Below, piece by piece: positions 6,979 through 30,025 of a stretch of 64,000 nt of DNA. The stretch lies in the NCBI GenBank assembly GCA_016234805.1, contig JACRNU010000030.1, positions 27,406 through 91,405 of the forward strand, in the 5' to 3' direction. Each line of letters starts with the position of its first letter. Position 1 is the first letter of the stretch. The position numbers and the translations under genes were made by a program. The notes under the pieces are model-generated. The model was not told the origin of the DNA, did not search any database, and saw nothing but the letters and a program-made list of their open reading frames with translations. The DNA is from Elusimicrobiota bacterium (GTDB lineage Bacteria > Elusimicrobiota > Elusimicrobia > UBA1565 > UBA9628).

Positions 6979-7809
6979 ATGGCCGTGGCCCACCGTGAGG
7001 GAGCGCTTTGGTGGAGGCTCCATTTTGAGGACAATCCTCTCTGCCGCACGGACGCGCAGATCAGCGCGCGCATCGACGGGGTGGAGCGCTACCTCGGCCT
7101 GGAGCACCGCTCGAGGGTCATCGACCTGGGCTGCGGTTCGGGCCGGCCCACTCTCGAGCTTTCGCGCCGGGGACACCGGGTCCTGGGCATGGATCCGGTC
7201 GAGGAGCCCCTGACCTCGGCCCGGGCCGCCGCCCGCGAGGAGAAGCTCAACGCGCACTTCGTGGTCTCGGACATCCGGCAGATCTCCTACCGGGGGGAGT
7301 TCGACGCCGCGGTGAGCCTGTTCTCGTCCTTCGGCCGGTTCCCGCTCGAGCGCGACGACGTCCGGACCCTGGAGTCCGTGCACAAGAGCCTCAAGACAGG
7401 CGGCAAGCTGCTCCTCGACCTCGTCAACCGGGAGTGGCTGGTGCGGCACGTGGAGCCGGAGATCTGGGATCAGGCCGAGGAGTCCGCGGACGGGGTCACG
7501 ATCCAGGATCAGATCTCCTTCGACCTCGAGTCCGGCAGGCTCGACAACCTGCGCAGCACCCTGGACAAGGACGGCAACCGCACGCCCTCCTTCATGAGCG
7601 TGCGGGTCTACACGCTCACGGAGATCAAGAAGCTCGTCGCGGCCGCGGGGCTGGTGTTCCGTCGCGCGTGGGGAGCCTTCGACGGCTCGGCCTACGGCCT
7701 GGACAGCTACCGCATGATCGTCATGGCCGAGAAGCCGGTCACGGAGACCGCGCCCCGCAAGGAGGAGGCTGCCTCCATGACCATCAGGATCAAGGGGCGC
7801 AGAAGGTGA
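6979..7809 (+). CDS. Class I SAM-dependent methyltransferase.
   Basis: VIDLGCGSGRPTLEL (motif I), DAAVSLFSSFG and GGKLLLDLVN. Start is the ATG at 6979 within track ORF 6895..7809. Confidence 0.7.
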   Translation: MAVAHREGALWWRLHFEDNPLCRTDAQISARIDGVERYLGLEHRSRVIDLGCGSGRPTLELSRRGHRVLGMDPVEEPLTSARAAAREEKLNAHFVVSDIRQISYRGEFDAAVSLFSSFGRFPLERDDVRTLESVHKSLKTGGKLLLDLVNREWLVRHVEPEIWDQAEESADGVTIQDQISFDLESGRLDNLRSTLDKDGNRTPSFMSVRVYTLTEIKKLVAAAGLVFRRAWGAFDGSAYGLDSYRMIVMAEKPVTETAPRKEEAASMTIRIKGRRR

Positions 7810-10726: not shown

Positions 10727-11497
10727 ATGCCCTTTTTGGAGGTTCGCTTGATCCCGAGCCCGATTCACAAAGTCCTTTTGATTTTCCAGAATTGCAGCGC
10801 GCGGTTTCTATTGATGGGCGGTCAGGCGTGCATTTTATACGGCGCGGCGGAATTTAGCCGCGATCTGGACCTCGCCATCGGCATCGATGAGCCGAACCTT
10901 GGAAGAATACGGGATGCGCTCAACGAACTCCGCGCCGAGAGCGTTTTCGCGCCTCCCCTGGATGCCGGCGCGTTGGAGCGCGGGCATGCCTGCCATTTTC
11001 GCTGTCATACTCCTGAGACGGAAGGCCTCCGAATCGACATCATGACCCGCATGCGCGGGTGCGATGATTTCGCCGCGTTGTGGGAGCGGCGCACGATGGT
11101 CCATCTTCCGGAGATCGGGGAGATGGGCGTGCTGTCCTTGCCGGATCTGATAAGAGCCAAGAAGACTCAGCGTGAGAAAGACTGGCCCATGGTCCGTCGG
11201 CTGATTGAAGCCGATATTTTGCAGGCCCAAGACAGGGCGACGGAAAAGCAGGTCCAGTTCTGGTTCGAGGAGTGCCGGACGCCGTCGGAGCTGATGCGTT
11301 TGGCCAAAGTATGGCCTGCCCTGTGTCGATCCGTATCGACCCGACGGAGGCTTCTCGCCCATGCCCTCTCCGGAGACGGCGTGGCCCTTGAAAAAAGCCT
11401 CCGGGAAGAAGAGGCATCTGAAAAGGATAGGGATCGACAGTATTGGAGTCCATTAAAGATGGAACTTGAAAAATGGCGCCATGATAGAAGGCCATGA
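10727..11497 (+). CDS. Hypothetical nucleotidyltransferase-fold protein in a locally lower-GC stretch.
   Basis: LLMGGQACILYGAAEFSRDLDLAI resembles the minimal nucleotidyltransferase GS...D.D motif. Local GC is visibly lower than the flanks. The start is uncertain. Confidence 0.4.
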   Translation: MPFLEVRLIPSPIHKVLLIFQNCSARFLLMGGQACILYGAAEFSRDLDLAIGIDEPNLGRIRDALNELRAESVFAPPLDAGALERGHACHFRCHTPETEGLRIDIMTRMRGCDDFAALWERRTMVHLPEIGEMGVLSLPDLIRAKKTQREKDWPMVRRLIEADILQAQDRATEKQVQFWFEECRTPSELMRLAKVWPALCRSVSTRRRLLAHALSGDGVALEKSLREEEASEKDRDRQYWSPLKMELEKWRHDRRP

Positions 11498-13067
11498 CGG
11501 CAAGGCCTCCGGCCCTCTCTGCCTCTCGTGCCTTCCCAGCCTGACCGACGCAGTCGTTGCGGCTCTGTCCAGCGCGGCCCTGGGCCTTGCGGTCGCGGTC
11601 ATGCGGACCCTCTCCCGAGTCCCGGCATCGGACGACCTCCTGCTTCCAAGGAGGGCCTTCTACCCGTTCTTCGCGTTCTTCATCAAGGCCCAGGCCTCCC
11701 CAGCGGTCCGGGGCGCGCTCTCCTGGCTGGCTCTGGCCTTGACGCTCGCCAGCCTCCTGCTGGTCCTGTGGCGCCTGTGGGCCGGGTTCAAGCGCGGCAG
11801 GTCCGGCGCCATGGGCGTGTCCAGGGGCCGCGCGCCATGGCTTGCCGCTGTCGGTCTCTTGGCCGGAAGCCTGGCCTTCGCCGCCTTGGCCAGGTCCTCG
11901 ATCGCGACTTTCCTCGACATGCTCCAGAACGCGTGGTTCCTTCCCGAGAGTCTCGATATCCGCGAGCCCCCGCTCGCCTTCGTCCTGTCAGCCGTGCCCG
12001 TGTTCCTGGCTGTGGCCGCGATCCTGAGTCTGGCTGAGACAGCGTTCTCATCCGGTCCCTGGAAGACGGCCAGGCCGTGGAAAACGGCCTGCGGCTGGAC
12101 CACGGCCTTGGCCGCGTGCTGGCTGGCCGCGATGATCATGGCTCAAGGCTACGGCGCCGGGCTGAGCCTTGCCCAGTCCTCGGGAACCTCGGTGGGAACG
12201 CCTGGGAGCGCCTTCATCCTGGTGCTCACCGAGAAGGGAATCCCGGACTATTCAGTGCGCGAAGCGCCTTTGGCCGTGCCTGGACCGGTCGAGCGCGCTG
12301 AGGACGACCTAGCAGGGCTGGAGAGGTTCAGCCGGCTTCGGTCCCTGCAGAGGCTCCCGGCTCTGAGGCACGCCTATACGGGCCGTGCCGCTCTGGCGGA
12401 CGCGGACGGCATGCGGGCCTCGGCTTTGGCCGCCCTCGAGGCCGGGGACCCGTTGGCCGGGCTCCTGCTCTTGGGGAGCTTGTCTCACGCTCCCGCCAAC
12501 AAGGACAACCTGAGGATGCTCGAGACCCTGGCGGATGAGAAGCGCTGGCGGGTCGGTCCCCATGCCGCCTTCCTCCTGTCCGCTGCGTTCGCCAGGTTCG
12601 GCGTCGCTGACCGGGCCGGGTATTGGCTCGGCCGCGCTTCACAGGGCGATGCCGGCATCCCGGCCGGGCTTCTGGTGTCGCCCGATTCGGCCAAGCCTTC
12701 GAAGGTCCGGGGCAGGTTCGTGTTCGAAGGCGCGGCCGTCCCTGTCAGCGGAAGCCGCCAGAGAGGCGGAAGCGGTAAGGGAGAAGGTCTGCGGGTCGCG
12801 CTTTATTCCAGGGACCGCGCCATCCCCGCGGATCTCTCAGCCATGACCCTCGCGGCTTCCACGGTCCTCGACGCCAAGGGAGGTTTCGAGTTCCGCGACA
12901 TGCCTGGCGGCGACTATTCCCTGGCGCTCCTGCTCGGCACGGCCGAGTCTTCGACCGGACCCTTCCGGGCCGGCCCGGCCCGGGGCAGCCTCCGCGTGAG
13001 CGGCCACAAGGGCGACATCCGCGTCGAGGGCAAGGACGTGTCCTTGGCCCCCATCTTCCTGCGATGA
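11466..13067 (+). CDS. Hypothetical membrane protein upstream of, and overlapping, an ABC transporter operon.
   Basis: 533-aa ORF with several hydrophobic helices (LSWLALALTLASLLLVLW, LAFVLSAVPVFLAVAAILSLA) and a C-terminal soluble region. 4-nt overlap with the downstream ABC ATPase gene. Confidence 0.5.
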   Translation: MKNGAMIEGHDGKASGPLCLSCLPSLTDAVVAALSSAALGLAVAVMRTLSRVPASDDLLLPRRAFYPFFAFFIKAQASPAVRGALSWLALALTLASLLLVLWRLWAGFKRGRSGAMGVSRGRAPWLAAVGLLAGSLAFAALARSSIATFLDMLQNAWFLPESLDIREPPLAFVLSAVPVFLAVAAILSLAETAFSSGPWKTARPWKTACGWTTALAACWLAAMIMAQGYGAGLSLAQSSGTSVGTPGSAFILVLTEKGIPDYSVREAPLAVPGPVERAEDDLAGLERFSRLRSLQRLPALRHAYTGRAALADADGMRASALAALEAGDPLAGLLLLGSLSHAPANKDNLRMLETLADEKRWRVGPHAAFLLSAAFARFGVADRAGYWLGRASQGDAGIPAGLLVSPDSAKPSKVRGRFVFEGAAVPVSGSRQRGGSGKGEGLRVALYSRDRAIPADLSAMTLAASTVLDAKGGFEFRDMPGGDYSLALLLGTAESSTGPFRAGPARGSLRVSGHKGDIRVEGKDVSLAPIFLR

Positions 13068-13816
13068 TCGAGGTCCGCGGACTCAGCAAGCGCTTCTCCC
13101 CTGTCCAGGGTCTGCGCGGCATGGTCGGGGGGCTCTTTCGCGCCGCGCCGCAGGCCTCCGTGACCGCCCTGGACGAGGTGAGCTTTAGCGTGGGCAAGGG
13201 CGAGGTCTTCGGCCTGGTCGGCCCGAATGGAGCGGGCAAGACCACCCTGATCAAGGTCCTCGCCACCCTTGTCCTGCCTGATTCGGGGGATGCGGCCGTG
13301 GCCGGCCACGACATCCTGGCTGATCCTTGCCGAGTGAAGGCATCCATGGGGTTGGTGACCGGGGATGAGCGCAGTTTCTACTGGCGGTTGACGGGTTGGC
13401 AGAACCTCGAGTTCTTCGGCGCTTTCCAAGGATTGCCGGTTGGCAGGGTTAGGGAGCGGGTCCGGGGACTGGGACCGCTGTTGGATGGGGATGCTCTCGA
13501 CAGGAGGGTGGCTGAGTATTCGGCCGGGATGCGCCAGCGTCTCGGCCTCTTGAGGGCTCTGCTCCATGATCCTGAGGTCCTTTTGCTCGACGAACCCACG
13601 AAGAGCATCGACCCCGCTGGAGCGGCCATGGTGGGAAGGTTCGTCCGCGACGAGCTTGCTGGAAGGCAGGGCAAGTCCGTCCTGTTCGCCACGCACAATA
13701 TGGCCGAGGCCGAGGCTGTCTGCGGCCGTGTCGGGCTTCTTGTCCAAGGCAGGCTGGTCGCGCAAGGCGCGCCCCACGACATCAGGGAACGTCCGGAGCT
13801 TCTTTCCCATGGCTAA
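13064..13816 (+). CDS. ABC transporter ATP-binding protein.
   Basis: Walker A GPNGAGKTT, ABC signature YSAGMRQRLGL, Walker B LLLDEPT, and an H-loop. Confidence 0.9.
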   Translation: MIEVRGLSKRFSPVQGLRGMVGGLFRAAPQASVTALDEVSFSVGKGEVFGLVGPNGAGKTTLIKVLATLVLPDSGDAAVAGHDILADPCRVKASMGLVTGDERSFYWRLTGWQNLEFFGAFQGLPVGRVRERVRGLGPLLDGDALDRRVAEYSAGMRQRLGLLRALLHDPEVLLLDEPTKSIDPAGAAMVGRFVRDELAGRQGKSVLFATHNMAEAEAVCGRVGLLVQGRLVAQGAPHDIRERPELLSHG

Positions 13817-14612
13817 GACCGCGGCGTACCTGCGCAAGGCCCTGGGCGACGCGCGCAGCTACCGCCTGGGCTTCGGGTTGGCGCTTTTGAGCACTGTTTT
13901 CTCCGTGGTCTCGTATTTCTTCATTGACAAGCTCTTCGGCAGGCAGGTCGCGCCCCATCTCGCGCCGTTCGGGGTCAGCTACTTCTCCTACGTCCTGGTG
14001 GGGATGATGGCCAGCACTTACCTTGGAGGGGCTTTGGGCGCGGTCTCGAGCATGATGAGGGAAGAGCAGGTCTGGGGGACCTTCGAGGCCCTCCTGGCCA
14101 CGCCGACCGGGATATTCACCATCGCGTGCGCCATGGCTTCCTGGAACCTCATCATGGCCTCCCTGGAGACCGCGGTCTATGTCCTGGCCGGGGTCTTCGT
14201 CTTCGGAGTGGATTTCAGCAGCGTCAACCTGCCTGCCGCGCTGATCATCCTGTCCCTGGCCATGGTCTCTTTCTCGGCCATGGGGATCATCTCCGCTGCC
14301 TTCATCCTGGCCTTCAAGCGCGGCGACCCTCTCTCCATCATGATGAACCTCGGGATGGAGATACTGGGGGGGGTGTTCTTTCCGGTCACGATCCTTCCGG
14401 ATTGGCTCAAGGCTTTGTCATACCTTTTCCCCACCACCTACGCGGTCCGGTCCCTGGAGCTGGCGATCTACAGGGGCGCGGGGCTAGCGGACCTCCGGCA
14501 CGATGTGGCCGTGCTCGCCGTTCTGTCCGCGGTCTTGGTCCCCATGGCCTACCGGAGCCTGGGGGCGGCATTAGATTACGCCCGTAGGAAAGGCACGCTG
14601 GCGCAGTATTGA
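13809..14612 (+). CDS. ABC-2 type transporter permease.
   Basis: MAKTAAYLRKALGDARSYR followed by six predicted TM helices typical of the ABC-2 family. Start overlaps the ATPase gene by 8 nt. Confidence 0.7.
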   Translation: MAKTAAYLRKALGDARSYRLGFGLALLSTVFSVVSYFFIDKLFGRQVAPHLAPFGVSYFSYVLVGMMASTYLGGALGAVSSMMREEQVWGTFEALLATPTGIFTIACAMASWNLIMASLETAVYVLAGVFVFGVDFSSVNLPAALIILSLAMVSFSAMGIISAAFILAFKRGDPLSIMMNLGMEILGGVFFPVTILPDWLKALSYLFPTTYAVRSLELAIYRGAGLADLRHDVAVLAVLSAVLVPMAYRSLGAALDYARRKGTLAQY

Positions 14613-14619
14613 GCGCGGA

Positions 14620-15123
14620 TCAGAGGCGCTTCTCCATCGTGGACTCGTCTCCGGAACTCTCGACGACGTGAAAGCCCATCTCCCGATAGAGCGCGAGGGC
14701 TGCCCAAGCCCTGCGGTTCACCGACAGCGTTACGGCCTCGCCCTTCCGAGTCTTGACGTGGTCGAGGATCGCGGCGCAAAGGCTCCGGCCCAGGCCCTGG
14801 TGTCTGTAGAGCGGCTTGACCCAGACCCCGTCTATTCCCCATCGACCGCCGCCGAGCAGGGTGACGGTGGCCGTCCCGATGACCGTATCGCGCGTCAGCG
14901 CGACGAACCGGGCGCCTCCGGCGAGCTCGCCCTTGAGGCCTTCGGCGAATTCAGCTTGGGTCATCCCGGGCGCGCTGTTGAGGCGGCACAGCTCCGCGGC
15001 GTCGTCCATGGTGGCCGGCCTTACGACTGCGCGTTCCCGCAGCAGGAGCGTCCGTATGAGCCTGCGGCATCCCGATGCCTCCAGCAGGAACGATGCGACC
15101 CTGGTCGGCGGCCAAGGCGTCAC
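14620..15123 (-). CDS. GNAT family N-acetyltransferase.
   Basis: VWVKPLYRHQGLGRSLCAAILDHV is an acetyl-CoA binding motif (R/Q-x-x-G-x-G/A). Confidence 0.75.
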   Translation of the reverse strand: MTPWPPTRVASFLLEASGCRRLIRTLLLRERAVVRPATMDDAAELCRLNSAPGMTQAEFAEGLKGELAGGARFVALTRDTVIGTATVTLLGGGRWGIDGVWVKPLYRHQGLGRSLCAAILDHVKTRKGEAVTLSVNRRAWAALALYREMGFHVVESSGDESTMEKRL

Positions 15124-15150: not shown

Positions 15151-15834
15151 TCATCGGCTGCGCCAGACCAGCGTATCAAGCTCCTGGAGCTCAGCATCGA
15201 GCTCCAGCCAGGGCTGGCTGTCGAAAATGGAGCGCTGGCGCGCGCAGAAATAGGCCACCCGGATAATGCGCGGCTTGGCGATGAGCGACCGCCGGATGTT
15301 CTCCACGACCGCGCCGAAGGTCTTGGGCCCAAAAGGGTCGGAGAAGAAGAAGGCCGTGCCTTCCGACACATCGAACGATGCGGCATCGGCGCGGACGAAC
15401 TCCCCCCCCCCCCCCCTGAAGGTCCGCTTGTTCTCCATGGCGATCCGGAACAAGTCTTCGTTCAACTCGACTCCCACCGCCCTCTTCGGACGGAGCGTGG
15501 CTGCAAGAAAGACGGCCCTGCCCTGCCCGCATCCGAGGTCAATAAAGACGTCCTCTGGCCCCAGGGCGAGGAAGGCCAGGATTTTGTCCGCGGCGGCGTA
15601 GGAGATGGGATCGTACGGCTGCATGTCGCGGAATCCGCTCTCGTCGGCGTTGCGTCGCCACGGCAGGTTTGTCCTGATGCCGAGTCCCCGGTCGCGCCGA
15701 TGCTCCGCCACGACGACGGCGAAGTCCCGCGTCGTGTCCAGCAGATGCTGTCCCAGGCCCGATAGGAAGCGCCGGAAACTCTGCAAGAGCTTGAACGCCA
15801 GCGAATCCTTGACCCTCGCGCGGAGCGTCAGCAT
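15151..15834 (-). CDS. Class I SAM-dependent methyltransferase containing a 15-nt poly-C tract (GGGGG in the protein).
   Basis: VFIDLGCGQGRAVFLAA (motif I). The last gene of the minus-strand cluster; its start overlaps the upstream fusion gene by 7 nt. Confidence 0.65.
   Translation of the reverse strand: MLTLRARVKDSLAFKLLQSFRRFLSGLGQHLLDTTRDFAVVVAEHRRDRGLGIRTNLPWRRNADESGFRDMQPYDPISYAAADKILAFLALGPEDVFIDLGCGQGRAVFLAATLRPKRAVGVELNEDLFRIAMENKRTFRGGGGEFVRADAASFDVSEGTAFFFSDPFGPKTFGAVVENIRRSLIAKPRIIRVAYFCARQRSIFDSQPWLELDAELQELDTLVWRSR
15402..15416. repeat. Homopolymeric tract C15 (G15 on the coding strand) inside a methyltransferase CDS.
   Basis: Direct reading of gaactCCCCCCCCCCCCCCCtgaag; it encodes RGGGGEF. 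Confidence 0.8.
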
Positions 15835-18146
15835 GGGGCGCGAAGCTCCTTTTCCGGCGGCCGCCAGTCCGGGATGACGCCGATGCCGAAGCCCTTCTGA
15901 TCCCAGTCCTCCACGATCTCCTCGACGGGATGGGCGGCCTTGATCTCCCGCCAGAGCCTGGGTGATTCCTGGTCGCCGGTCGAGGGGTCGGGCACGATGT
16001 CGTGGAAGGCTATTATGCCTCCTTCCCGGACCAGGGGGGAGTAACGCTCAAAGTCGGATCTGACCGCGTCATAGGCGTGGTCGCCGTCGATGAAAAGGAA
16101 ATCCGCCTTCCTGCCGCCCAGCAGTTCCCGGACCCGTGCCAGGGTCCGGTCGCTCCCGGAGTCCGAGCGGACGAGCCTGATCGTCTGTCCCTTGAGCCCG
16201 ATCGAACGGTAGAGCGGGATCCTCGCGGCCGAGTATCCTTCGCCGCCTCCGAAGAAGGGCCCTGGGAGGTCCACGCTGACGAGGAGGGCGTCCTTTGCCG
16301 CGGCTCGGGAGAATAGGAACAGGGTCCCTCCGAGCTCGGTCCCGATCTCGACGATCACCTCGGGCTGGCGCGCCTTCAGGAGTTCGACGAGACGGATGAT
16401 CTCGCTCCTCACTTGAGCCGGCTGGAGGAGGCCCTCGAGTCCGTCGAAGGCGAGATCAGCCAGCCTGCCGGGGTCCCAGGTCAGGTCCGCGGCTTGGATG
16501 TCCCGCAGGTGAAGGGGGAGCTTGAGCAGGCGTTTGGCCGCGGCCGCGAGCCCGCCGGCGGAGCCGGGGCCGCGTTCGCGGACGACCCTGTCCCGCCAGC
16601 GACGTTCGAGTCGGTCGACGCCTTCCTCGCCGAGCAGGTCCGAGCTCTTGCTGCCGTAGTGGATGACCCAGACGTTGATGAGGGCGTAGAGCTTCCAGCC
16701 CAGGCGCTTCACGCGCTGGGTCAGGTCGATCCCTTCGTGACCGAGAAAGTATCTGCGGTCGAACTCCCCTGCCTCGGCCAGGGCGGACCGACGCGCCAGG
16801 AGGAACCCGCCTTCGAGATAGTCCACCTTGGCGAAGAAGAAGCCGTCCTTGAACCGGCCGCGCCAACGGGCGATGGTGTCGAGGATCCGATTCTCGCACC
16901 AGGAGTTGGGGAAGGCCTTGTTGGCGCGAAGGCAGAGGTCCCAAAGCACGCGCCGCCAGCCGGTCAGCACGACGCCGACCTCCCAGGCCTCATCCTTGTC
17001 CTCCGGCCGCTCGATCTCCCGGGGCATGGCGGCTCCCGCTTCGGGATGCTCCTCCATGAACCGCACGGACCTGGCCAGGGTGTCGGGCAGCATTTCCGTG
17101 TCCGGGTTGAGGAAAAGGACGAATTCTCCCCTGGCCAGGGCCACGGCCTGGTTGTGTCCGGAGCCGTAGCCCACGTTCTCTCGATTCTCGACTACTCGGA
17201 CTTCCGGGTATTTCTCCCGGACCATGGCGGCGGAGCCGTCGGAGGATGCGTTGTCCACCACGATGACCTCGAGGTCCAGGCCTCCCGCGTGCCGGAACAC
17301 GGAGGCGAGGCATTTGTCCAGGTAGTCCCTGACATTCCAGTTGACGATGGAGACCGTGAGCTTGAGGGCGGGACCGGCCTGGACCCTTGGGGCTGCAACC
17401 GGGATCCCCCGAAGAGTCCTCCCGAGGCGGAAGGCCAGCCGGTGGAGGGGATGAGGGATCGCGGACACCAGGAGCCCGAGGACGCGGTCCATGGGCTTGT
17501 CCAACGGAGTCCTGTCGCCCTTCCTGATCCGGGCCGCCACCCTGCCGAGGATCTCGGATTCCGTGACCTGGTCAAGGCCGTCCCCGCTGTCGGCTTTGAG
17601 GGTGAAGGTCCATCCGCCTTGGCCGGCCGAGGCGCCGACGATGCGGTGGGCGGCCATCCTGTCGTCCTTGGAGTAGAGGACGATGTCCCCTCTCCTGAGT
17701 CCGGCGGGCCCGGCCGGCCTGACTTCCAGCGTGTCGCCGTCCTTGATGATGGGGGACATGCTTGAGCCCCGCGCCTCGAGCCGGACCGAGGCGCCGCGTT
17801 CGAGCAGGGAGGCCGCGACCGAGGCCAGGTCAACGGCCCCGACGTTCAGGCCGTCCAGGCGGTTCTCAGCCACGCTCCCGCATCCTTTGTGTTCCGGAAG
17901 GAAAACTCCTGGACCGGGATCTCCCGGCAGAGCCTCGCGCACGATCCCAGAGCGGCCTCCATCAGCTTCTTGTCCCACCAGGGAGCGAAGGTGCAGCGCA
18001 GCAGGGCTGCCGCGGCCCCCGATGGGGACAGGGAGGCCAGGCCGTTGCTTTTTGCCTGCCGGAGGATGAAGAGCTTCTTGAGGGGGACGGCTCTGTTGGC
18101 CGCGAGCCGGTCCTCTCCGGGCCAAGGCGTGCCGCACAGCAGCCAT
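15828..18146 (-). CDS. Three-domain fusion protein: S24/S26 (LexA/signal-peptidase-like, Ser-His type) peptidase domain, a family-2 glycosyltransferase, and a class I SAM methyltransferase (TylF/cephalosporin-hydroxylase-like). True start probably internal.
   Basis: N-terminal: GSSMSPIIKDGDTLEV...RRGDIVLYS...AAHRIVG, an SPase I/LexA-like fold with His in place of the general-base Lys. Middle: KLTVSIVNWNVRDYLDKCLASVF...VIVVDNASSDGS...FLNPDTEM, a GT2 DXD-type domain. C-terminal: VIVEIGTELGGTLFLFS...FLFIDGDHAYDAVRSDFE...GGIIAFHDI, a methyltransferase. The first ~100 codons of the track ORF overlap the upstream kinase gene. Confidence 0.65.
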   Translation of the reverse strand: MAAVRHALARRGPARGQQSRPPQEALHPPAGKKQRPGLPVPIGGRGSPAALHLRSLVGQEADGGRSGIVREALPGDPGPGVFLPEHKGCGSVAENRLDGLNVGAVDLASVAASLLERGASVRLEARGSSMSPIIKDGDTLEVRPAGPAGLRRGDIVLYSKDDRMAAHRIVGASAGQGGWTFTLKADSGDGLDQVTESEILGRVAARIRKGDRTPLDKPMDRVLGLLVSAIPHPLHRLAFRLGRTLRGIPVAAPRVQAGPALKLTVSIVNWNVRDYLDKCLASVFRHAGGLDLEVIVVDNASSDGSAAMVREKYPEVRVVENRENVGYGSGHNQAVALARGEFVLFLNPDTEMLPDTLARSVRFMEEHPEAGAAMPREIERPEDKDEAWEVGVVLTGWRRVLWDLCLRANKAFPNSWCENRILDTIARWRGRFKDGFFFAKVDYLEGGFLLARRSALAEAGEFDRRYFLGHEGIDLTQRVKRLGWKLYALINVWVIHYGSKSSDLLGEEGVDRLERRWRDRVVRERGPGSAGGLAAAAKRLLKLPLHLRDIQAADLTWDPGRLADLAFDGLEGLLQPAQVRSEIIRLVELLKARQPEVIVEIGTELGGTLFLFSRAAAKDALLVSVDLPGPFFGGGEGYSAARIPLYRSIGLKGQTIRLVRSDSGSDRTLARVRELLGGRKADFLFIDGDHAYDAVRSDFERYSPLVREGGIIAFHDIVPDPSTGDQESPRLWREIKAAHPVEEIVEDWDQKGFGIGVIPDWRPPEKELRAPC

Positions 18147-18736
18147 CGCGAGCCGGACCTGCGCAGCACGATCCGGTCATCGCTCAACACCGGGATCTCC
18201 GGGCCGGACCCCCTCAGCAGGCGGGTCATGGTGGTCTTTCCTGCCCCGGAACTGCCGGCCAGGGCCACGCCCCCTTCCCCGACCGCGAGCCCGGCGGCGT
18301 GCAGGAGCAGGCCCGAGGACCCGAGGAGCGTCACGGTGAGCTGGCGGCTGATCAGGTCAAGGGTTTGGATGAGGGATGCTCCCGGAGCCTGACGCTGCAT
18401 GAGCAGGCGGTAGCGCCTGACCTTCCGGCCGTTCCGGATGCCCTTCCCTTCCGGGATCAGCACCCCGCAGGGCGGCTTGTTGCGCTGGGATGAGATGCGC
18501 AGGACCTCCTGTCCACGGCACGCGGTGACGCGCCAGAACACGGGGGTGTCGTAGACGACTCTGTCGCCGGCTCCGGCCTCGGCATGGCCCGGGGATATGG
18601 TCACGACCGCGTCCGGGTATTTATTCGTGACGAACTTGAGGTAGGCCGACATCCTGCTGTCGGTCCCGAGTTCGGGGATCCAGCGGCTCCGGAACTCCAC
18701 GACCGGACCCCCAAGTTCCAGCCTGAGGCTGGGCAC
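17846..18736 (-). CDS. HPr kinase/phosphorylase C-terminal-domain-like P-loop kinase (HprK-related).
   Basis: LLLHAAGLAVGEGGVALAGSSGAGKTTMTRLL is the Walker A region, in the arrangement seen in HprK C-terminal domains and in HprK-like kinases of RiPP clusters. Confidence 0.65.
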   Translation of the reverse strand: MPSLRLELGGPVVEFRSRWIPELGTDSRMSAYLKFVTNKYPDAVVTISPGHAEAGAGDRVVYDTPVFWRVTACRGQEVLRISSQRNKPPCGVLIPEGKGIRNGRKVRRYRLLMQRQAPGASLIQTLDLISRQLTVTLLGSSGLLLHAAGLAVGEGGVALAGSSGAGKTTMTRLLRGSGPEIPVLSDDRIVLRRSGSRWLLCGTPWPGEDRLAANRAVPLKKLFILRQAKSNGLASLSPSGAAAALLRCTFAPWWDKKLMEAALGSCARLCREIPVQEFSFRNTKDAGAWLRTAWTA

Positions 18737-18758: not shown

Positions 18759-18923
18759 CTAGCTTCTGCTGTAGGTGACGCGGCATCGGGAACACGCCCT
18801 GCCTGCGCAGCGCGAGGTGTTCGTGCTGCGCGCCGCGGACCTGCAGGCGGTGAGGATCTGCTCCTCGAGCGCGAGCTTGACCTGGACCATGGCGGGCTTC
18901 TGATACGGCTTCTTCTGGCTCAT
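18759..18923 (-). CDS. Candidate RiPP precursor peptide (54 aa): helical leader plus a Cys-rich, Ser/Arg-rich C-terminal core ending in Ser.
   Basis: Sequence MSQKKPYQKPAMVQVKLALEEQILTACRSAARSTNTSRCAGRACSRCRVTYSRS. The frame is taken from the tail of track ORF 18759..19277 and is too short to be called alone; my own reading of the raw text here differs by one base. An AGGAGA Shine-Dalgarno (18931-18936) sits 7 nt upstream of the ATG at 18923, which is 11 nt downstream of the radical SAM/SPASM stop. Confidence 0.5.
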   Translation of the reverse strand: MSQKKPYQKPAMVQVKLALEEQILTACRSAARSTNTSRCAGRACSRCRVTYSRS

Positions 18924-18934: not shown

Positions 18935-20005
18935 CTATTGTTGCGTTTGTGCCGGTTCCTTGGAGCCGGCTTTCTTCCCGGCGAGGGCCTGGTGGCGCAG
19001 ACCGGCCTTGCGGCAAAGGGGTTCCACGATCCCTCCCAGGGACCGGTGCTCCAGCATGGCGTAGCCTGAGCACTGCTCGCAAAGAGGCGCTTTGTCGCAA
19101 GCAAGGCACTTTGGGGAAAGGCTTTCCTCCATCACGCGCCGGAAAAGGGGCATGGCTTCGCGCCACCCCGCTGAGAAGGAGCCCTTCCTGATGTCGTAGG
19201 CGAGGTTCGGGAAGGAATCGCAGGGCTGGAGCATGCCGTAGGGGTTGATGGTGAACACGATGGCGCCTGCCCCGCACAGGAGCAAGTCGCGGGCCGGGAC
19301 TTGGGAAAGCTCCCTGAGGAGTTCGCCGTATTCCTGCTTGGACTTCTCATCCGCGAGGTCCAGGGCCACGGTCTCCTCGGGGCTCAGCCGCAGTCCCCGG
19401 TTGTCGAAGCCTTCGTCGAGCCGGGGCACGAGGATGGTGTCGTAGGCGAGGCTGCGTCCCGGGTGCACGGCTTCGGCGGTGCCGCGCATGGCGGTCAGCT
19501 CGTGCTTGTTGAGGGACATCACCATGGTCTTGAGCGCGACATCCACTCCCCGCTCCTTCAATAGTCCGGCCGCGGCCAGGGAGCGGTCCAGGGAGCCCGG
19601 GCTGCGGGTGATCCGGTCATGGGTCGCGGCCGTGGCGCCGTAGATCGTGATCTCGACTCCGAGCGGCGGGTAATCGGCGAAGAGGTCCGCGAGCTCCGGG
19701 GTCAGGAGGGTGCCGTTGGTGAAGACCTCGATGAACATCCCTCGTCGGATCGCATGGAGGTAGATGTCCCGGAAGTCGGGCCGGAGCAGAGGCTCCCCGC
19801 CTGTCAGGAGAAGCCATAGGCAGCCGGCGTCCGCGACCTCGTCGAGGATGCGCCGGACCTCATCGAGGGAGAGCTCCTGGTCCCGCGCGGCGCGGTCTTC
19901 GGCCGGGATGCTGCAGTAGCAGTGGACGCAGTCCTGGTTGCAGCGGTAGGTCAGGGCCAGGGAGCCGAGATAGGGCAGCCGCAGGGACATGGCCTTCTCA
20001 TCCAT
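18935..20005 (-). CDS. Radical SAM/SPASM domain peptide-modifying enzyme.
   Basis: LTYRCNQDCVHCY is a CxxxCxxC radical SAM motif; the C-terminal SPASM-type Cys cluster is CLACDKAPLCEQCSGYA. Start placed at an internal Met (MDEK); the track ORF extends to 20056 and overlaps the PqqD gene. Confidence 0.75.
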   Translation of the reverse strand: MDEKAMSLRLPYLGSLALTYRCNQDCVHCYCSIPAEDRAARDQELSLDEVRRILDEVADAGCLWLLLTGGEPLLRPDFRDIYLHAIRRGMFIEVFTNGTLLTPELADLFADYPPLGVEITIYGATAATHDRITRSPGSLDRSLAAAGLLKERGVDVALKTMVMSLNKHELTAMRGTAEAVHPGRSLAYDTILVPRLDEGFDNRGLRLSPEETVALDLADEKSKQEYGELLRELSQVPARDLLLCGAGAIVFTINPYGMLQPCDSFPNLAYDIRKGSFSAGWREAMPLFRRVMEESLSPKCLACDKAPLCEQCSGYAMLEHRSLGGIVEPLCRKAGLRHQALAGKKAGSKEPAQTQQ

Positions 20006-20042
20006 GACGCGGCGGAACTCGCCGAACCCGGCTTGGGGGATC

Positions 20043-20330
20043 TTAGCGCAGGGCATGGCTCTTCACCAGGTCCTTGGCGGCGAGGGCTCTCAGGAAATCC
20101 AGGGTGTCTTCCTCGGCGATCTGAGCAGCCACCTCGAAGCGCTCGCGGATGAGCTCCGCCGCCTGCGCCGCCGTACGGCGCCCATCCAGGGCGTCCCAGA
20201 GGAGGGCGCCGGTCTCGTTGAGCCGCCAGACCACGGCCTCATCCTGGTCCACGAGCACGGCCTCGTCTTCGATGAGCTTGAAGAGGATGTCCGGGTTGCG
20301 GACGGGCCGGTCCTGAAGAGAGAGCTTCAT
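20043..20330 (-). CDS. PqqD-family protein (RiPP recognition element-like peptide chaperone), copy 1.
   Basis: 95 aa: ...FKLIEDEAVLVDQDEAVVWRLNETGALLWDALDGRRTAAQAAELIRERF..., a PqqD fold signature. 4-nt overlap with the upstream B12-rSAM gene. Confidence 0.8.
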   Translation of the reverse strand: MKLSLQDRPVRNPDILFKLIEDEAVLVDQDEAVVWRLNETGALLWDALDGRRTAAQAAELIRERFEVAAQIAEEDTLDFLRALAAKDLVKSHALR

Positions 20331-23197
20331 CGGGACACCATGGCGTCAAGGGCGGTGGCCGCGGCTCGGTAGAGCTCCCGGCCGGCCTTGCCGTAGCGGC
20401 GCTCGGCAAGGAGCCCGCGTCCCAGCCGCCAGTGCAGGTCGGCTGAGTCGAGCCCCAGGCGCCTGGCTTTCCTGAAGTGGGAGAGGGCTTCGCCGGCTTT
20501 CCCCTGCCGCTCGGCGATGAGCCCCAGTTGGAAGAATGCGCCTGCTGAATCAGGGGAGAGGTCCAGGACCGCGCGGAAATGAGAGGCCGCTTCCTCCGGA
20601 GAACCTCCGGAGGCGAGCAGCACGGCTCCCAACCCGAAATGAGCGTCCTCGATCGCGGGGGAAAGCTCCAGGGCCTTCCTGAACAGGCGTTCGGCTTCGG
20701 TCCAGTCTTTACGTGCGCGGTTCACGTTGCCAAGGCCGCAGAGCGCGAGGGCGTTAGCCGGGTCGAGCTTCAAGGCGTCCTTGTACGCTTTCTCGGCTCC
20801 GGCCCGATCATCCATGAACTCCAGGACCGGTCCTGGGTTGTTGTAGGCGGTCCTGTAGGACGGGTCGAGACCGACCGCCTTGCGATAGGAGAGCCTGGCC
20901 GAATCGATTTCTCCCTTCTCGAGGCCCGCAAGGGCCGCGAGGTAATGCCGGGCGGCGGGCGGCACGGACCAATCCGAGGACTGAAGGCGGGCCTTGAGCT
21001 CGTCTCCCAGGTGCTTGAACCGCAGGGGGGTGAAGCCGCCCTCCACGGAATACGAGATGGTCGTGCATTCCGGTTTGAGGCCCAGTCCGGCAAGCCGCTG
21101 GGAAAGGCGCTCCGGAGCGATCCAGGGCTCGCGGTCCGGAGCGAGGTCGTCCGTGACTTTCCTGGTCAGCAGGTAATCCAGATCGATGTCGAGCAGGACC
21201 GGGCCCGGGAACTTGGGCAGGCCGGCCAGTTCGCAGACGATGGTCTTCCTGCCCGCGAGTTCCGTGACCAGCAGGTCTCCTTGCGCGCGCACGAGCGTTC
21301 GCGGCCGGGCAAGCCTCTTGAGCGTGCGAAGGACGTGCCTGCGCTCCTTATGGCTGGACAGGGTCCCGTCCGGCACCACCCAGTAGAACTCGGACACGAT
21401 CCCATCCTGCATGGCAGGACAAACGAAATTGCCGATGGTGACCAGGCGCTCCTTCGGGGTCTCGACCGGATTCCACAGGGGCCGGCTCGCGAGCAGGCTG
21501 TCCAATTCGGCCTTGGTGCCGGCTTCGAGGATCTGGGTGATGTCCTTCTCCGGGACCCAGCCGAAATCGATGTGCGCGTCGAGGTGGATGAGGGGCAGTC
21601 CCGAGAGCCCGAGCTTGCGCCATACCCCGAGGACCTCGTTGTGGTCTTCCACGAGATGGGTGGACCTCCGGTGCATCAGGCCTTTGCAGAGCTGTTCCAG
21701 CCGGCCGGCCTCCATGGGGCTCATCGGGCCTCTTGCCTGGCGGAACTCGGTGAAGAACTTGAACGGCAGGCCTCCGTCCCTGTCGAATTCCAGCCCCCAC
21801 CGTGCCGGGTCGTCGTAGACTGGGCACTTGGGCGTCAGATAGTACGTGTTGAAGGCGGGATGGTCGATGGAGGCGCGGTTCTCGGAGATGAAAGCCACGG
21901 TCTCCAACCCTTCCTCGACGGTCTCTCCCGGCAGACCGAAGATGGTCTGGAGGCCCACCGCGACTCCGGCTGCGTGACAGTCCCTGATGACCCTTTCCGA
22001 GACCGCCTGCTTGTTCCCTTTGAGCACGAGGCCGCAGACCCTGTCCGAGGCGGACTCGAAACCGAAATTGACCTGCTTGCAGCCCGCTTCCCTGGCCAGG
22101 TCGAAGATGTCCCGGGTGAAGCCGTTGTCGAGCCTGGCCATGGTCCACCAGGGCACGGCGAAATCCTCCTGGATGAGCCTCGTCGAGACCTCGCGCATCT
22201 GGCTCGGGGACATGGTGGCGTTGGAGACCAGCAGGAGCGCCGGCTTGTGGCGTTCCGCAAGGGCCTTGAAGTCCCTCGCCACCAGGTCCGGCGATTTGGC
22301 CCGGTAGGACGGCTTGGGCAGGGGCAGGTCCACGCAGTAGGCGCAGCGGTTCCAGTAGCAGCCCCGGGAGGTCTCGCAGGTCAGGGCAAGGCCTCCTTGC
22401 CTGCTGCTTGCGTAGCTCGCGAGCGGAAGTCCTTCGAAGTCGGGAGTGGGCAGGAGGTCGAGGTCCTCCTCGCTGGTGACGGGGCTGCGGATCCAGGCGC
22501 CGTTGGCATGGCGGATCAGGTTGGGCACGGTCGAGACAGGACCCCGGGACTCGAGCGCCGAGACCAGGCCCAGGAGGGGGGTCTCGCCCTCGCCGGTCAC
22601 GACGAAGTCGAAGAGCGCCGCCCAATCAGGGCGGGCCATGATCTCCTCCGCGAAGAGGGTTGCCCATTGGCCGCCGAGGGCGATCTTCACCTCAGGGGAC
22701 CGCCGCTTGAGCAGGCGGCAAAGCGTCAGGCCGGCCAAGGCTTGGGAAGGGGAGACGATCGAAAGGCCGATGAGCGATGGCGTGCCTGAGAGGATTCCCT
22801 TGGCCCCCGGGTCGGCCAGGAAGAACCGCAGGAATGTGTTCTCGTCCTCATCGTCCAGATACCTGAAAAGGATGCCGCTGGAAAGGATCCGTTCGATGAA
22901 GTAGAAGGAGGAATTGGTCCTGTTGTCGTACGGGCTGCCGTATTGGTAGTCTCCGGCGTTCTGCGGCAGGAGGGATGAGTAGTAGAGCCCTTGGGCCTTC
23001 CCGTCAAAGAGCTCGTTCATCCGCCGCCGCGCCGTGTCCGCGGAACCGTCCCAGGAGTCCCGGTAGGCGAGGTTGAGGTCGAGCTGCGAGACGCCGATCC
23101 CCCTGGACTTCAGGAAGCCGGCCAGGGCCGGCGTTCCCAGCGGCGGGGCGTCGTATTCGTAGTCGGGAGGGATGACAAGGCGGACTTCCGGCATCAA
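20327..23197 (-). CDS. B12-binding radical SAM protein with a C-terminal TPR repeat domain (956 aa).
   Basis: N-terminal B12-binding region (IGLSIVSPSQALAGLTLCRLLKRRSPEVKIALGG). Radical SAM core with a CETSRGCYWNRCAYC cysteine motif. C-terminal ~250 aa with TPR-like repeats (AYNNPGPVLEFMDDRAGAEKAYKDALKLDP..., HFGLGAVLLASGG...). Confidence 0.75.
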   Translation of the reverse strand: MMPEVRLVIPPDYEYDAPPLGTPALAGFLKSRGIGVSQLDLNLAYRDSWDGSADTARRRMNELFDGKAQGLYYSSLLPQNAGDYQYGSPYDNRTNSSFYFIERILSSGILFRYLDDEDENTFLRFFLADPGAKGILSGTPSLIGLSIVSPSQALAGLTLCRLLKRRSPEVKIALGGQWATLFAEEIMARPDWAALFDFVVTGEGETPLLGLVSALESRGPVSTVPNLIRHANGAWIRSPVTSEEDLDLLPTPDFEGLPLASYASSRQGGLALTCETSRGCYWNRCAYCVDLPLPKPSYRAKSPDLVARDFKALAERHKPALLLVSNATMSPSQMREVSTRLIQEDFAVPWWTMARLDNGFTRDIFDLAREAGCKQVNFGFESASDRVCGLVLKGNKQAVSERVIRDCHAAGVAVGLQTIFGLPGETVEEGLETVAFISENRASIDHPAFNTYYLTPKCPVYDDPARWGLEFDRDGGLPFKFFTEFRQARGPMSPMEAGRLEQLCKGLMHRRSTHLVEDHNEVLGVWRKLGLSGLPLIHLDAHIDFGWVPEKDITQILEAGTKAELDSLLASRPLWNPVETPKERLVTIGNFVCPAMQDGIVSEFYWVVPDGTLSSHKERRHVLRTLKRLARPRTLVRAQGDLLVTELAGRKTIVCELAGLPKFPGPVLLDIDLDYLLTRKVTDDLAPDREPWIAPERLSQRLAGLGLKPECTTISYSVEGGFTPLRFKHLGDELKARLQSSDWSVPPAARHYLAALAGLEKGEIDSARLSYRKAVGLDPSYRTAYNNPGPVLEFMDDRAGAEKAYKDALKLDPANALALCGLGNVNRARKDWTEAERLFRKALELSPAIEDAHFGLGAVLLASGGSPEEAASHFRAVLDLSPDSAGAFFQLGLIAERQGKAGEALSHFRKARRLGLDSADLHWRLGRGLLAERRYGKAGRELYRAAATALDAMVSR

Positions 23198-23484
23198 TTA
23201 GCGTGCACGCTTTTTATGGTCTCGAACTGCGTCAGGATGGTCCCAAGATCCGCCTCGACCTCGGTGCCGGTCGTCGCGTACTCCTCCAGCAGGGTCGTCT
23301 TGATCTGCCCCACGGTGCGCTGTCCGTCGATGAGTTCCCAGACCCGGGCCGCGGTGTCGTTCAAGGTGAAGATGCTCCTCAGGTCGCCCACCTTCTCCCG
23401 GATGGGGACGAGGATGTACTCATCCGCGATGCGGCGGCCCACGAAGTCGGGGTTCTTGCTGTAGCGGCGTTCCAATAGTTGCAT
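23194..23484 (-). CDS. PqqD-family protein, copy 2.
   Basis: MQLLERRYSKNPDFVGRRIADEYILVPI...LNDTAARVWELIDGQRTVGQIKTTLLEEYA is a PqqD-like fold. The ATG at 23484 has a GAGGGAG RBS. 4-nt overlap with the downstream B12-rSAM start. Confidence 0.65.
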   Translation of the reverse strand: MQLLERRYSKNPDFVGRRIADEYILVPIREKVGDLRSIFTLNDTAARVWELIDGQRTVGQIKTTLLEEYATTGTEVEADLGTILTQFETIKSVHAN

Positions 23485-28426: not shown

Positions 28427-29097
28427 CGGGGCCGCGAGCCTCCGCACTCGGTTTTGCGGATGAAGAACAGCCTGTCGTCGATCTTCCGGTCCGGGGTGAA
28501 GTCCTTCCTGAGCCAATCCCTGAGGCAGGCTGAGGTCTCATCGTCGCGGGGAAGCTCTCCGCCGGCATCCAACGCCACCGTGCCCACCCCGGCCCGCTTG
28601 AGGGCGGCGCACATCCCGACCGGCGTCTTGCAGGTGAAGGCCAGTCCGAGGGACAGCCCGGTAAGGATGGTCCGCATGGAGCCCGGTCCCGCTGTCGGGT
28701 CCGGGCCTGAGCCCAGGAGCAGGCACGCGGCGATGAACACGAAAAAGAAGGCGCTGGAGGTGATGATCGGGCCGCCAGCGCAAACCGGCATGTACCAGAC
28801 CGCGGCGTTCATGACGCTCCCAAGGGCGATGTAGGCGGCGTAGGTGACCCCGAACAGCTTGTAGAAAGCAGCCAGCATCCAGAAGAGGACCGGTCCGAAG
28901 GGGCAGAAGAAGTCGAGGAAAGGGGCCTGGCCCAGGTAGACGCGATAGCCGCCTTCGATGACGCCGGCCGCCAATTCGTTTCCGTAGAAATGGAAGCCGC
29001 AAAAGCGGTTGAAGAGGAAGGCGAACAAGGCGACTGCCGTGGCGCAGGCACCGACGGCCAGGGGGCGCGGCGCCACGGGTCGCGCGGGCATGGGCAT
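28417..29097 (-). pseudogene. Internally deleted third paralog of the GT-C-like membrane protein (226 aa: N-terminal ~170 aa fused in frame to the C-terminal ~55 aa).
   Basis: The N-terminus aligns with the paralogs (FAFLFNRFCGFHFYGNELAAGVIEGGYRVYLGQAPFLDFF) and the C-terminus with their tails (ACLRDWLRKDFTPDRKIDDRLFFIRK vs CMKRWLREGFVDDRTIDEWVFYSRR). The middle ~380 aa is absent. Confidence 0.45.
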
Positions 29098-29128
29098 GCA
29101 GAGCGCAATGCTATCATATCCTCATCCC

Positions 29129-30025
29129 ATGCGCGGCTTGGACGAGTCCCTGCCCCTTTTGGCCAGAAACCTCTTCCTCCTCGGCACGCTCAGGGAGTTG
29201 CTGGCCGAGGCGCGCAAGCGCGGCATCCCGGTCATCGTGCTTAAGGGCGCCGCCCTCCTCTGTTGGCTCATCGAGGACCCGGGGGCGCGTGCCATGGGAG
29301 ATCTGGACATCCTCGTGCCTGAGGCGAAACGGCTCGAGACCGAGAGGATGCTCGCTGACTTGGGGTACGGTCTGGCTCCTGGGACTGTCGAGATGTTCAT
29401 GCGGGGCACGGCGGTGGTGGACCTGCATACCAGCCTTCTCCACAGGCAGGACACCGCGTCCCTGTGGCGCGAAGCCGTGCCTTGCTCCATCGAGGGAGAG
29501 AAGGCCCTGGTCCTGGGGCCTGATGAGACCTTCATCCACCTGGTGGCGCGGGCCTTTCTTCAGGGTGGGAGCTTGGAGGAAAAATATCTCGACGACCTGC
29601 GGCGGCTGGCCGCGACCGCTGGAGGCGGCTTGATGGGCCTGGATTGGGACCGGGTGATCGGGAAGGCTTTGGGGCTCGGTCTGGGTCCCATGGCGCACGC
29701 GGCCTTGGAAGAGCTGGCCAGAGCCTCGGACCGGTCAGGCGCGGTTTTGGCTGGAGCGCCGCTGGTCCCGGATCGGGTGCTCGCCGCCCTGAAGCCCTCG
29801 GGCGCGGGCCGCGCCGCTGCATGGGTGGCCCGAAAGGCGGCTTCGCGCAGGGATGAGAGCTATTTCAACTCAGCGGTCCTCTTCACTTTGGTAAGGCCGG
29901 GCTTCGTCTTGTCCCGGCTGTTCCCGAACCGCGAGTTCCTGGAGCGGCGCTACGGGGAGAACTGGAAGCGGGAAGCCCTGCTTCGGCCGTTCAAGCTCGC
30001 GGCCAGGGCCTTGGGCTTGAGGTAG
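29129..30025 (+). CDS. Nucleotidyltransferase-family protein (uncharacterised NTP_transf_5/PF14907-like).
   Basis: VLKGAALLCWLIEDPGARAMGDLDILV contains the G-x(n)-D-x-D nucleotidyltransferase motif. Confidence 0.55.
   Translation: MRGLDESLPLLARNLFLLGTLRELLAEARKRGIPVIVLKGAALLCWLIEDPGARAMGDLDILVPEAKRLETERMLADLGYGLAPGTVEMFMRGTAVVDLHTSLLHRQDTASLWREAVPCSIEGEKALVLGPDETFIHLVARAFLQGGSLEEKYLDDLRRLAATAGGGLMGLDWDRVIGKALGLGLGPMAHAALEELARASDRSGAVLAGAPLVPDRVLAALKPSGAGRAAAWVARKAASRRDESYFNSAVLFTLVRPGFVLSRLFPNREFLERRYGENWKREALLRPFKLAARALGLR

Follow-up and report, generated by a model that had tools for sequence, protein, structure and literature searches.

A ScmC-family HprK-like kinase beside a serine-terminal precursor in a widespread radical SAM/SPASM peptide cassette

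Introduction

What is the substrate of a P-loop kinase whose gene adjoins that of a small peptide ending in serine? The question is raised by an assembly of an Elusimicrobiota bacterium (GCA_016234805.1, contig JACRNU010000030.1, positions 27,406 to 91,405 of the forward strand), of which we analysed a stretch of 64,000 nucleotides, hereafter the window, with positions counted from its first letter. On the minus strand of the window, at 17846..18736, an open reading frame (ORF) encodes a protein of 296 amino acids that an original prediction, made from the letters alone, had described as an HPr kinase (HprK)-like enzyme recruited to a radical S-adenosylmethionine (rSAM)/SPASM class of RiPPs, peptides that are made by the ribosome and then modified post-translationally. 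To our knowledge few ribosomal peptide natural products are phosphorylated, and we know of HprK-type peptide kinases that have been studied solely in lasso peptides and, since 2026, in the LPPs of Bacillota. The literature searched, from which subscription journals were largely absent, contained no description of an HprK-type kinase linked with rSAM/SPASM RiPPs. We report that the protein has an HprK-type fold with a conserved catalytic set and that its gene belongs to a cassette that recurs across many phyla; it is very probably a RiPP-tailoring kinase of that rSAM/SPASM cassette, and we consider the C-terminal Ser of the adjoining peptide to be its probable, though less securely assigned, target.

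Fold and catalytic residues of the kinase

The kinase gene starts with GTG and has a coding-like GC fraction at third codon positions (0.86), and a deposited hypothetical protein of an Elusimicrobia metagenome-assembled genome is 100% identical to its product. The sequence, which includes VALAGSSGAGKTTMTRLL, divides into a beta-rich N-terminal part (residues ~1-120) and a kinase domain (residues ~121-296). An AlphaFold2 model of the protein has a mean confidence score (pLDDT) of 75, with values of 84-94 across most of the kinase domain, and the significant matches of this model among structures of the Protein Data Bank (PDB), as found by Foldseek, were exclusively phosphoenolpyruvate carboxykinase (PEPCK) and HPr kinase/phosphorylase (HprK/P), at E values of 3e-6 to 1e-3. 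All of the top 34 matches were chains of one or the other enzyme, 25 of them with E<=1e-3. When a profile of the kinase was compared with PDB sequences, the longest matches were again to HprK/P (1jb1, 1ko7) and ran from the His through the P-loop to the Asp-Asp region, whereas ABC ATPases in the same search were matched over ~25 P-loop residues and no more. A single-sequence search of the PDB had returned ABC ATPase P-loop noise alone, and it was the profile and fold searches that revealed the HprK/P link; together they rule out a coincidental P-loop as the explanation of the likeness.

The residues expected of such an enzyme are in place. The Walker A loop, G161-S-S-G-A-G-K167-T-T169 (18230..18256, minus strand), is preceded by the catalytic-type residue H146 (nt 18299-18301) and followed by D186-D187 (nt 18176-18181), and all of these are invariant in an alignment of seven sequences. 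In a larger alignment of 66 family members H146 is kept in 65/65, K167 and D186 are each kept in 66/66, and D187 is Asp in 60 and Glu in six; S185, R188 and T203-P-W205 are likewise invariant. The same His-Lys-Asp-Asp set is essential by mutagenesis in the lasso peptide kinases PadeK and ThcoK (reviewed in PMC9266682). The protein thus has an HprK/PEPCK-type kinase fold, as had been proposed, and its catalytic residues are conserved, with the correction that the Walker A region taken as the hallmark does not suffice by itself: what marks the family is the arrangement H...GxSGxGK[ST]...SDD.

Assignment to a family model required a second correction. The HprK_rel_A and HprK_rel_B models of NCBIfam that had been suggested (TIGR04352 and TIGR04355) scored 17.0 and 35.3 bits against cut-offs of 200, and the home of the protein is Pfam PF27840 'ScmC'. 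This assignment (PF27840.1) is a precomputed annotation of the identical protein, and it is also attached to five of the six homologues of that protein. The NCBIfam model of ScmC itself (TIGR04249) reached 22.4 bits against a cut-off of 125, aligning protein residues 139-247 with model positions 122-235. A bona fide HprK/P with an N-terminal HPr-binding domain had been named as the finding that would overturn the proposal, and no such identity emerged: neither TIGR00679 of NCBIfam nor Hpr_kinase_N (PF02603) and Hpr_kinase_C (PF07475) of Pfam matched the window kinase at E<=0.01, and its relatives score ~13 bits with TIGR00679, the cut-off of which is 240. The window kinase resembles HprK/P in its P-loop, in its His and Asp residues and in the way its C-terminal catalytic domain is folded. 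It lacks the HprK N-terminal domain, and its genomic context and presumed substrate are different. The family is large. A word-indexed search for homologues returned seven proteins, and an exhaustive search with the family profile returned 2146 cluster representatives at E<=1e-30; tblastn against the plasmids of PLSDB gave no match.

The precursor peptide and its C-terminal serine

Immediately upstream of the kinase, at 18759..18923 on the minus strand, lies the gene of a peptide of 54 amino acids, MSQKKPYQKPAMVQVKLALEEQILTACRSAARSTNTSRCAGRACSRCRVTYSRS, that ends ...VTYSRS. Between its ORF and the kinase start downstream lie 22 nt, and 11 nt separate it from the stop of the rSAM/SPASM gene ahead of it. 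A ribosome-binding site, GGAGA, stands 7 nt before the ATG, and homologous peptides are encoded at the corresponding place in 15 further loci. The adjoining peptide is accordingly a real precursor, as the original prediction had it. Its leader contains a YxxPxΦ motif in the form YQKPAM (nt 18888-18905), [Y/W]xxPxΦ being the leader motif bound by the RiPP recognition elements (RREs) of lasso peptide, LPP and pyrroloquinoline quinone (PQQ) pathways (PMC13381572). The core holds four Cys, seven Ser and three Thr, and the codon of the C-terminal Ser occupies nt 18762-18764. These precursor peptides have no model in NCBIfam or Pfam.

To what extent the terminal Ser is a property of the family was judged from two sets of loci. 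In the kinase-anchored set all 16 peptides encoded between the rSAM and kinase genes have both the C-terminal Ser and YxxPxΦ, their last two residues being G-S in 13 peptides, R-S in two and A-S in one. The family leader reads (K/R)(K/P)YxKPxΦ...LRPEEAVLG and the core follows the pattern xCK...GP...C...C. The second, peptide-anchored set was obtained by searching metagenome contigs for the junction motif [ED]EAVL[GA]xCK[TIA], a motif that uses neither the kinase nor the C-terminus, and at least 553 confirmed relatives were present among the 600 matches listed. From these we retained a sample of 80 loci with 82 complete peptides, 81 of which end in Ser and one in Thr, so that a hydroxyl is always kept at the peptide end; over the two sets together the terminal residue is Ser in 97 of 98 family peptides and Thr in the remaining one. 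The sample comprises 77 distinct cores, forming 31 clusters at ~70% similarity. Every one of these cores has exactly three Cys, the C-terminal motif is C-x-[T/S]-Φ-G-S directly before the stop, and the last residue is the sole position at which a hydroxyl is conserved in 100% of cores. Two loci (L044:185-2566 and L071:785-2817) have another precursor gene of this family past the kinase gene, and both copies end G-S.

Conservation of the cassette

The kinase and its peptide belong to a minus-strand operon whose genes run, in order, second PqqD, B12-binding rSAM, PqqD, rSAM/SPASM, 54-residue peptide, kinase, peptidase-glycosyltransferase-methyltransferase fusion, methyltransferase and GNAT. Packing is tight throughout, and the kinase gene abuts or overlaps its neighbours. 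The rSAM/SPASM peptide maturase (373 amino acids; 18935..20056, minus strand) matches PF04055 with 86.5 bits, and its near-full-length matches in NCBIfam, all sub-threshold, are to MftC (108 bits, the best full-length match), the GeoRSP rSAM protein and ScmE/F. The PqqD-family RRE that had been noted in the cluster is a protein of 95 amino acids (20043..20330, minus strand) scoring 62 bits with PF05402; its best NCBIfam match is lasso_PqqD_Strm, at 44 bits against a cut-off of 70.

The order PqqD, rSAM/SPASM, small ORF, kinase was found around the six homologues from the word-indexed search and in 14 loci from GTDB genomes, the hosts being Thermoanaerobaculia, Myxococcales, Polyangia, Chloroflexia, Nitrospirae, Planctomycetes, Acidobacteriota, Binatia and Omnitrophota. 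After the kinase there is usually an S24 peptidase in these loci and sometimes a nucleotidyltransferase of the NTP_transf_5 family. Linkage was then counted in the peptide-anchored set, over loci with sufficiently long flanks. The kinase is directly downstream of the peptide in 61/62 loci, an rSAM/SPASM orthologue is upstream of it in 60/60, PqqD is present in 47/48, and in 39/42 a peptidase, fused or standing alone, comes after the kinase. Locus L050 was considered as a kinase-less case and rejected, as it retains an N-terminal kinase remnant beside an unrelated gene on the opposite strand; it is a rearrangement or an assembly chimera and no true exception. The series PqqD, rSAM/SPASM, peptide, kinase, SipW-like peptidase is therefore a widespread conserved cassette. 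On this evidence the idea of a kinase recruited to an rSAM/SPASM class stands as to the maturase, which defines the class, and gives way as to recruitment, since the arrangement is not a one-off. One locus departs in layout: in L019 (594-4023) rSAM/SPASM and kinase are fused as a single protein of 677 amino acids, followed by a second rSAM/SPASM protein, and the peptide, encoded ahead of the fusion, is divergent, with a WxxPxL leader, five Cys and the ending ...GGGIS.

The peptidase of the window is the N-terminal part of a fusion protein (15828..17873, minus strand; the likely start is GTG at 17873, the ORF being listed from 18146). An archaeal-type or SipW-like S24 signal-peptidase domain at ~nt 17457-17849 (PF00717; sigpep_I_arch, 29 bits) is joined to a family 2 glycosyltransferase (GT2) at ~16596-17360 (PF00535, 88 bits) and to a Methyltransf_24/CmcI-like methyltransferase at ~15981-16415 (PF13578, 55 bits). 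The peptidase of L013 scores 44.9 bits with sigpep_I_arch and 34 bits with SipW, and neither in the window nor in L013 does any of these peptidase scores reach its curated cut-off. Forty-four peptidase sequences, the window fusion protein among them, conserve the motifs G-x-S-M-x-P, GD, HR and GD..D, the first of which reads G-S-S-M-S-P in the window protein. Signal peptidases have a preference at positions -3 and -1, and the family junction (V/L)-x-(G/A)|x-C-K fits it as a putative cleavage site; the predicted cut would fall behind ...ILTA in the window peptide and behind ...AVLG in the consensus.

The S24/SipW-like peptidase of most soil loci is either fused to a giant protein or has one encoded after it, with lengths from 1100 to more than 2500 amino acids (L009, L015, L027, L048, L051, L056, L061, L067, L070, L077, L080, L094 and L100, and also L006:12692-14896), for example downstream of the kinase at L100:6826-12141 and L015:8722-16470. 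Four of the giant proteins were scanned: that of L100 has DUF11 repeats, that of L009 has DUF11 together with Peptidase_C25 (the gingipain/PorU family), and those of L015 and L048 have C25 alone. In the window, by contrast, the peptidase is fused to GT2 and methyltransferase domains and not to a giant protein.

Relation to lasso peptide, LPP and SynChlorMet systems

The closest parallels are with the paeninodin-type lasso peptide kinases (PadeK, ThcoK, SyanK and PsmK). These systems share with the window the HprK/PEPCK-type P-loop domain with its His-Lys-Asp-Asp set, a discrete PqqD-type RRE that binds the [Y/W]xxPxΦ leader of a linear precursor, an extremely conserved C-terminal Ser, and a tendency to occur together with NTP_transf_5 and polysaccharide loci. 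They differ in that the cassette described here has neither a lasso cyclase nor a B2 protease, its class-defining enzyme is the rSAM/SPASM protein and its presumed leader peptidase is SipW-like; the N-terminal domain of the window kinase has no detectable counterpart among the lasso kinases, and the hosts are Elusimicrobia, Acidobacteriota, Myxococcota, Nitrospirae, Chloroflexi and Planctomycetes. Pfam scans of the coding-like window ORFs between ~40 and 47400 found no lasso cyclase (Asn_synthase) and no transglutaminase-type B2 protease, in keeping with the absence that had been noted, and a lasso cluster was ruled out as the identity of the operon on that ground.

For sequence comparison with the lasso kinases, the kinase of a haloarchaeal paeninodin-type lasso cluster in Halosimplex salinum (L022:3875-11628) served as a proxy for PadeK, ThcoK and LppK. 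Identity to this archaeal kinase is remote (22-26%), and homology was established with hhalign, which aligned the kinase family with it over 147 columns at 97.7% probability and an E value of 2e-12. The Halosimplex cluster contains NTP_transf_5, an ABC exporter, the HprK-like kinase, Asn_synthase and PqqD, with two lasso-like precursors whose leaders read YEAPQI and YRTPVV and whose ends read ...TGSIF and ...TGSVF.

A second parallel is with the LPP clusters of Bacillota (LppA/K/B/S/N/D; Popov et al. 2026), in which an RRE and an HprK-like kinase occur together with a SipW-like leader peptidase and an NTP transferase; LppK polyphosphorylates a single Ser, LppS is the RRE-dependent SipW-like leader peptidase of the family, and the clusters lie in capsular polysaccharide loci (PMC13381572). 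Common to both are the PqqD-type RRE, the HprK-like kinase, a peptidase with Ser and His motifs, the YxxP leader, embedding in polysaccharide loci and the lack of a lasso cyclase. The LPP clusters, however, in which phosphorylation is the sole primary modification, have no radical SAM enzyme, whereas rSAM/SPASM is universal in the loci counted here; the leaders have no more in common than the YxxPxΦ part of the LPP consensus YxxPxVLxHQxIxFETxxS; the LPP exporter is MsbA-type and the possible exporter of the window ABC-2 type; and LPP cores are long and variable, in contrast to the short cores here, with three Cys and G-S at the end. The cassette would work like the kinase/RRE module of the paeninodin-type lasso peptides and LPPs and is a member of neither family: it lacks both cyclase and B2 protease and has an rSAM maturase.

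The name ScmC comes with a third system, SynChlorMet (ScmC, ScmD, ScmE and ScmF; TIGR04248-TIGR04251), which likewise sets a ScmC-type protein beside a PqqD homologue and rSAM/SPASM proteins, and the two-rSAM layout of L019 resembles it. The window proteins miss all four cut-offs, with scores of 22 against 125, 36 against 100, and 70 and 74 against 400 bits; SynChlorMet has the ScmE and ScmF pair where the window has a single SPASM rSAM protein, and the cassette has in addition a peptidase and a defined precursor family. SynChlorMet was not mentioned in the literature searched, which contained no published function of ScmC.

Target of the kinase

Phosphorylation of the C-terminal Ser is the reading we favour, on the analogy of the lasso kinases, whose target is the conserved Ser at the C-terminus of the linear precursor (PMC9266682), and on the hydroxyl that every family peptide keeps at its end. 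Several points weigh against it. The window kinase is divergent, with 23-30% identity to the soil clade, and two nearly invariant motifs are changed in it (YPLDE to QTLDL and TPWHG to TPWPG); its peptide, too, has R-S at the end in place of the usual G-S and is without the LRPEEAVLGxCK junction. Further points on the same side concern the choice of residue and the role of the terminal Ser, and they are also what gives the two leading alternatives their substance.

In the first alternative, which we regard as unlikely and yet as the strongest competitor, the kinase acts on another Ser or Thr of the core, for example at position -4 or near the leader junction, and the terminal Ser is conserved for another reason. 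LppK sets the precedent, as its target is core Ser3 and not the C-terminal residue (PMC13381572). In 88% of the 77 distinct cores a Ser or Thr stands at position -4, which makes this position a candidate for a second modification site, and the window core with its seven Ser and three Thr offers many acceptors. In the Halosimplex lasso cluster, moreover, the target of the HprK-like kinase cannot be a C-terminal Ser, because the precursors end ...GSIF and ...GSVF. Against these stands the conservation itself: the last position alone keeps its hydroxyl in all 77 cores, even through the single replacement of Ser by Thr, and no other Ser/Thr column is invariant. The lasso kinases that act at the C-terminus also carry the same catalytic motif as the family studied here.

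A somewhat less probable alternative holds that the terminal Ser serves the rSAM/SPASM protein or a later enzyme, through a cross-link or a mycofactocin-like C-terminal transformation, and that the ScmC-like protein is ATP-dependent with a different target, for which a sugar, a lipid, the giant C25/DUF11 protein or complex assembly may be suggested. The rSAM enzyme may itself need the Ser, since among full-length NCBIfam matches its best is MftC, an enzyme that works on a C-terminal residue. The fusion of rSAM and kinase in L019, the placement of cassettes in polysaccharide or surface-protein contexts and the lack of a published function for ScmC in the literature searched lean the same way. 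The kinase nevertheless conserves the complete catalytic set of the HprK-type kinases of proteins and peptides, its gene comes immediately after the peptide gene with the regularity described above (61/62), and its closest characterised relatives are RRE-guided peptide Ser kinases.

It is improbable that the phosphate is transient, serving, as in the class III/IV lanthipeptide synthetases, as a leaving group on the way to a dehydroalanine that then reacts with Cys to give a mature product free of phosphate. The kinase-then-lyase logic of the class III/IV lanthipeptide synthetases is well established, and the cores, which always pair three Cys with conserved Ser/Thr positions, would suit it. 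Scans with Pfam and NCBIfam, however, found no lyase or cyclase domain in the operon, an rSAM/SPASM protein is already there to act on the Cys, and the HprK-type RiPP kinases that have been studied leave a stable (poly)phosphate. Finally, the protein might be the usual HPr kinase/phosphorylase that serves carbon catabolite control, encoded beside the peptide cluster by chance. This reading has the common fold and P-loop in its favour and nothing else, and it is refuted by the family-model scans, the differing N-terminal domain, and the strict synteny with the peptide in an operon whose genes the kinase gene abuts or overlaps.

Proposed pathway

With phosphorylation of the C-terminal Ser as the favoured reading, the cassette suggests the following sequence of events, in which we infer the rSAM chemistry, the order of the steps and the site of cleavage from analogy with characterised systems. 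The PqqD protein would bind the YxxPxΦ motif of the leader as an RRE and present the precursor to the modifying enzymes. The rSAM/SPASM protein would then modify the Cys-rich core, most likely by forming Cys-derived thioether cross-links that involve the three or four Cys. The kinase would transfer phosphate from ATP to the C-terminal Ser hydroxyl, possibly more than once, as the lasso and LPP kinases do, after which the SipW-like peptidase domain, with its Ser and His motifs, would remove the leader. In the window, decoration of the phospho-peptide by the GT2 domain, the two methyltransferases, the GNAT protein and the B12-binding rSAM protein may follow, and then export.

Taken as a whole, we tentatively picture the window as a divergent member of a widespread RiPP class, the product of which would be an rSAM/SPASM cross-linked three-Cys peptide with a (poly)phosphorylated and perhaps glycosylated C-terminal Ser and with signal-peptidase-like processing; this composite picture is held with less assurance than the assignment of the kinase. 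The metagenome scan counts at least 553 occurrences of the proposed class, which extends to many phyla other than Bacillota. If the picture is true, the kinase/RRE/SipW-peptidase module of lasso peptides and LPPs would be an ancient portable unit that has been joined to rSAM chemistry, and the link to giant DUF11/C25 surface proteins would point to a role in the cell envelope or matrix rather than to an antibiotic.

What the locus adds is a kinase/RRE/signal-peptidase module strictly coupled to rSAM/SPASM enzymes and Ser-terminal precursors, in hundreds of metagenomic loci and in phyla with few cultured members. Kinase genes of this kind are currently annotated as encoding a 'hypothetical protein', and the cassette offers a testable function for the Pfam 'ScmC' family with its more than 2000 cluster representatives. 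It also delimits a new family of precursors in which leader and core are clear, and it links RiPP chemistry to polysaccharide and surface-protein loci.

Neighbouring genes in the window

Upstream of the cassette the operon continues with a protein of 956 amino acids (20327..23197, minus strand) in which Pfam and NCBIfam models recognise a B12-binding rSAM enzyme with a UPF0489 domain and C-terminal tetratricopeptide (TPR) repeats. It resembles RiPP C-methyltransferases (TIGR03975, 118 bits). No homologue was found in loci L001-L022, the sole loci searched for one, and the protein appears to be an accessory specific to the window. The gene ahead of it encodes a second PqqD-domain protein (23194..23484, minus strand; the start is uncertain and the ORF is listed to 23829), with a PF05402 domain of 48.6 bits at residues 137-203 of the 211-residue ORF. 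A search near these two genes found no second precursor, and the 54-mer is the sole candidate of its type in the cluster region. At the other end of the operon the fusion gene is followed by that of a DOT1-like class I methyltransferase (15151..15834, minus strand; Pfam and NCBIfam) and by that of a GNAT acetyltransferase (14620..15123, minus strand; Pfam), the last gene of the minus-strand run. An ABC ATPase and an ABC-2 permease (13064..14612, plus strand) are encoded convergently with the operon; their membership in the cluster is uncertain, and they may be the exporter.

A nucleotidyltransferase of the NTP_transf_5 family (PF14907, 96.8 bits), which is the PsmN/LppN family, is encoded at 29009..30025 on the plus strand, opposite to the operon and ~5.5 kb from it, so that its membership in the cluster is also uncertain. 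It lies ~2 kb ahead of polysaccharide export genes (31986-34529, plus strand), of the Poly_export/SLBB (Wza-like) and Wzz/GNVR/AAA_31 (Wzc-like) types, with two ORFs lacking Pfam matches in between. Only 4 of 38 wide loci of the peptide-anchored set have NTP_transf_5; the family adjoins the cassette in L003, L006, L014, L015, L017, L048 and L074, and L003 shares the combination seen in the window, with NTP_transf_5 and Wza/Wzc-type export genes beside the cassette. These window genes seem to echo the embedding of LPP and paeninodin clusters in capsule loci.

Farther out, a pair of M16 (insulinase/PqqL-like) peptidases is encoded at 7434-10609 on the plus strand, ~4 kb past the end of the operon; M16 peptidase pairs are frequent RiPP leader peptidases. 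Four large coding-like ORFs of 533-1365 amino acids have no Pfam match (36802-40896 and 26678-28516 on the minus strand, 24846-26702 and 11466-13064 on the plus strand), and the window also contains an AbiEii toxin gene at 40988-41797 and an HNH endonuclease gene at 5369-6100.

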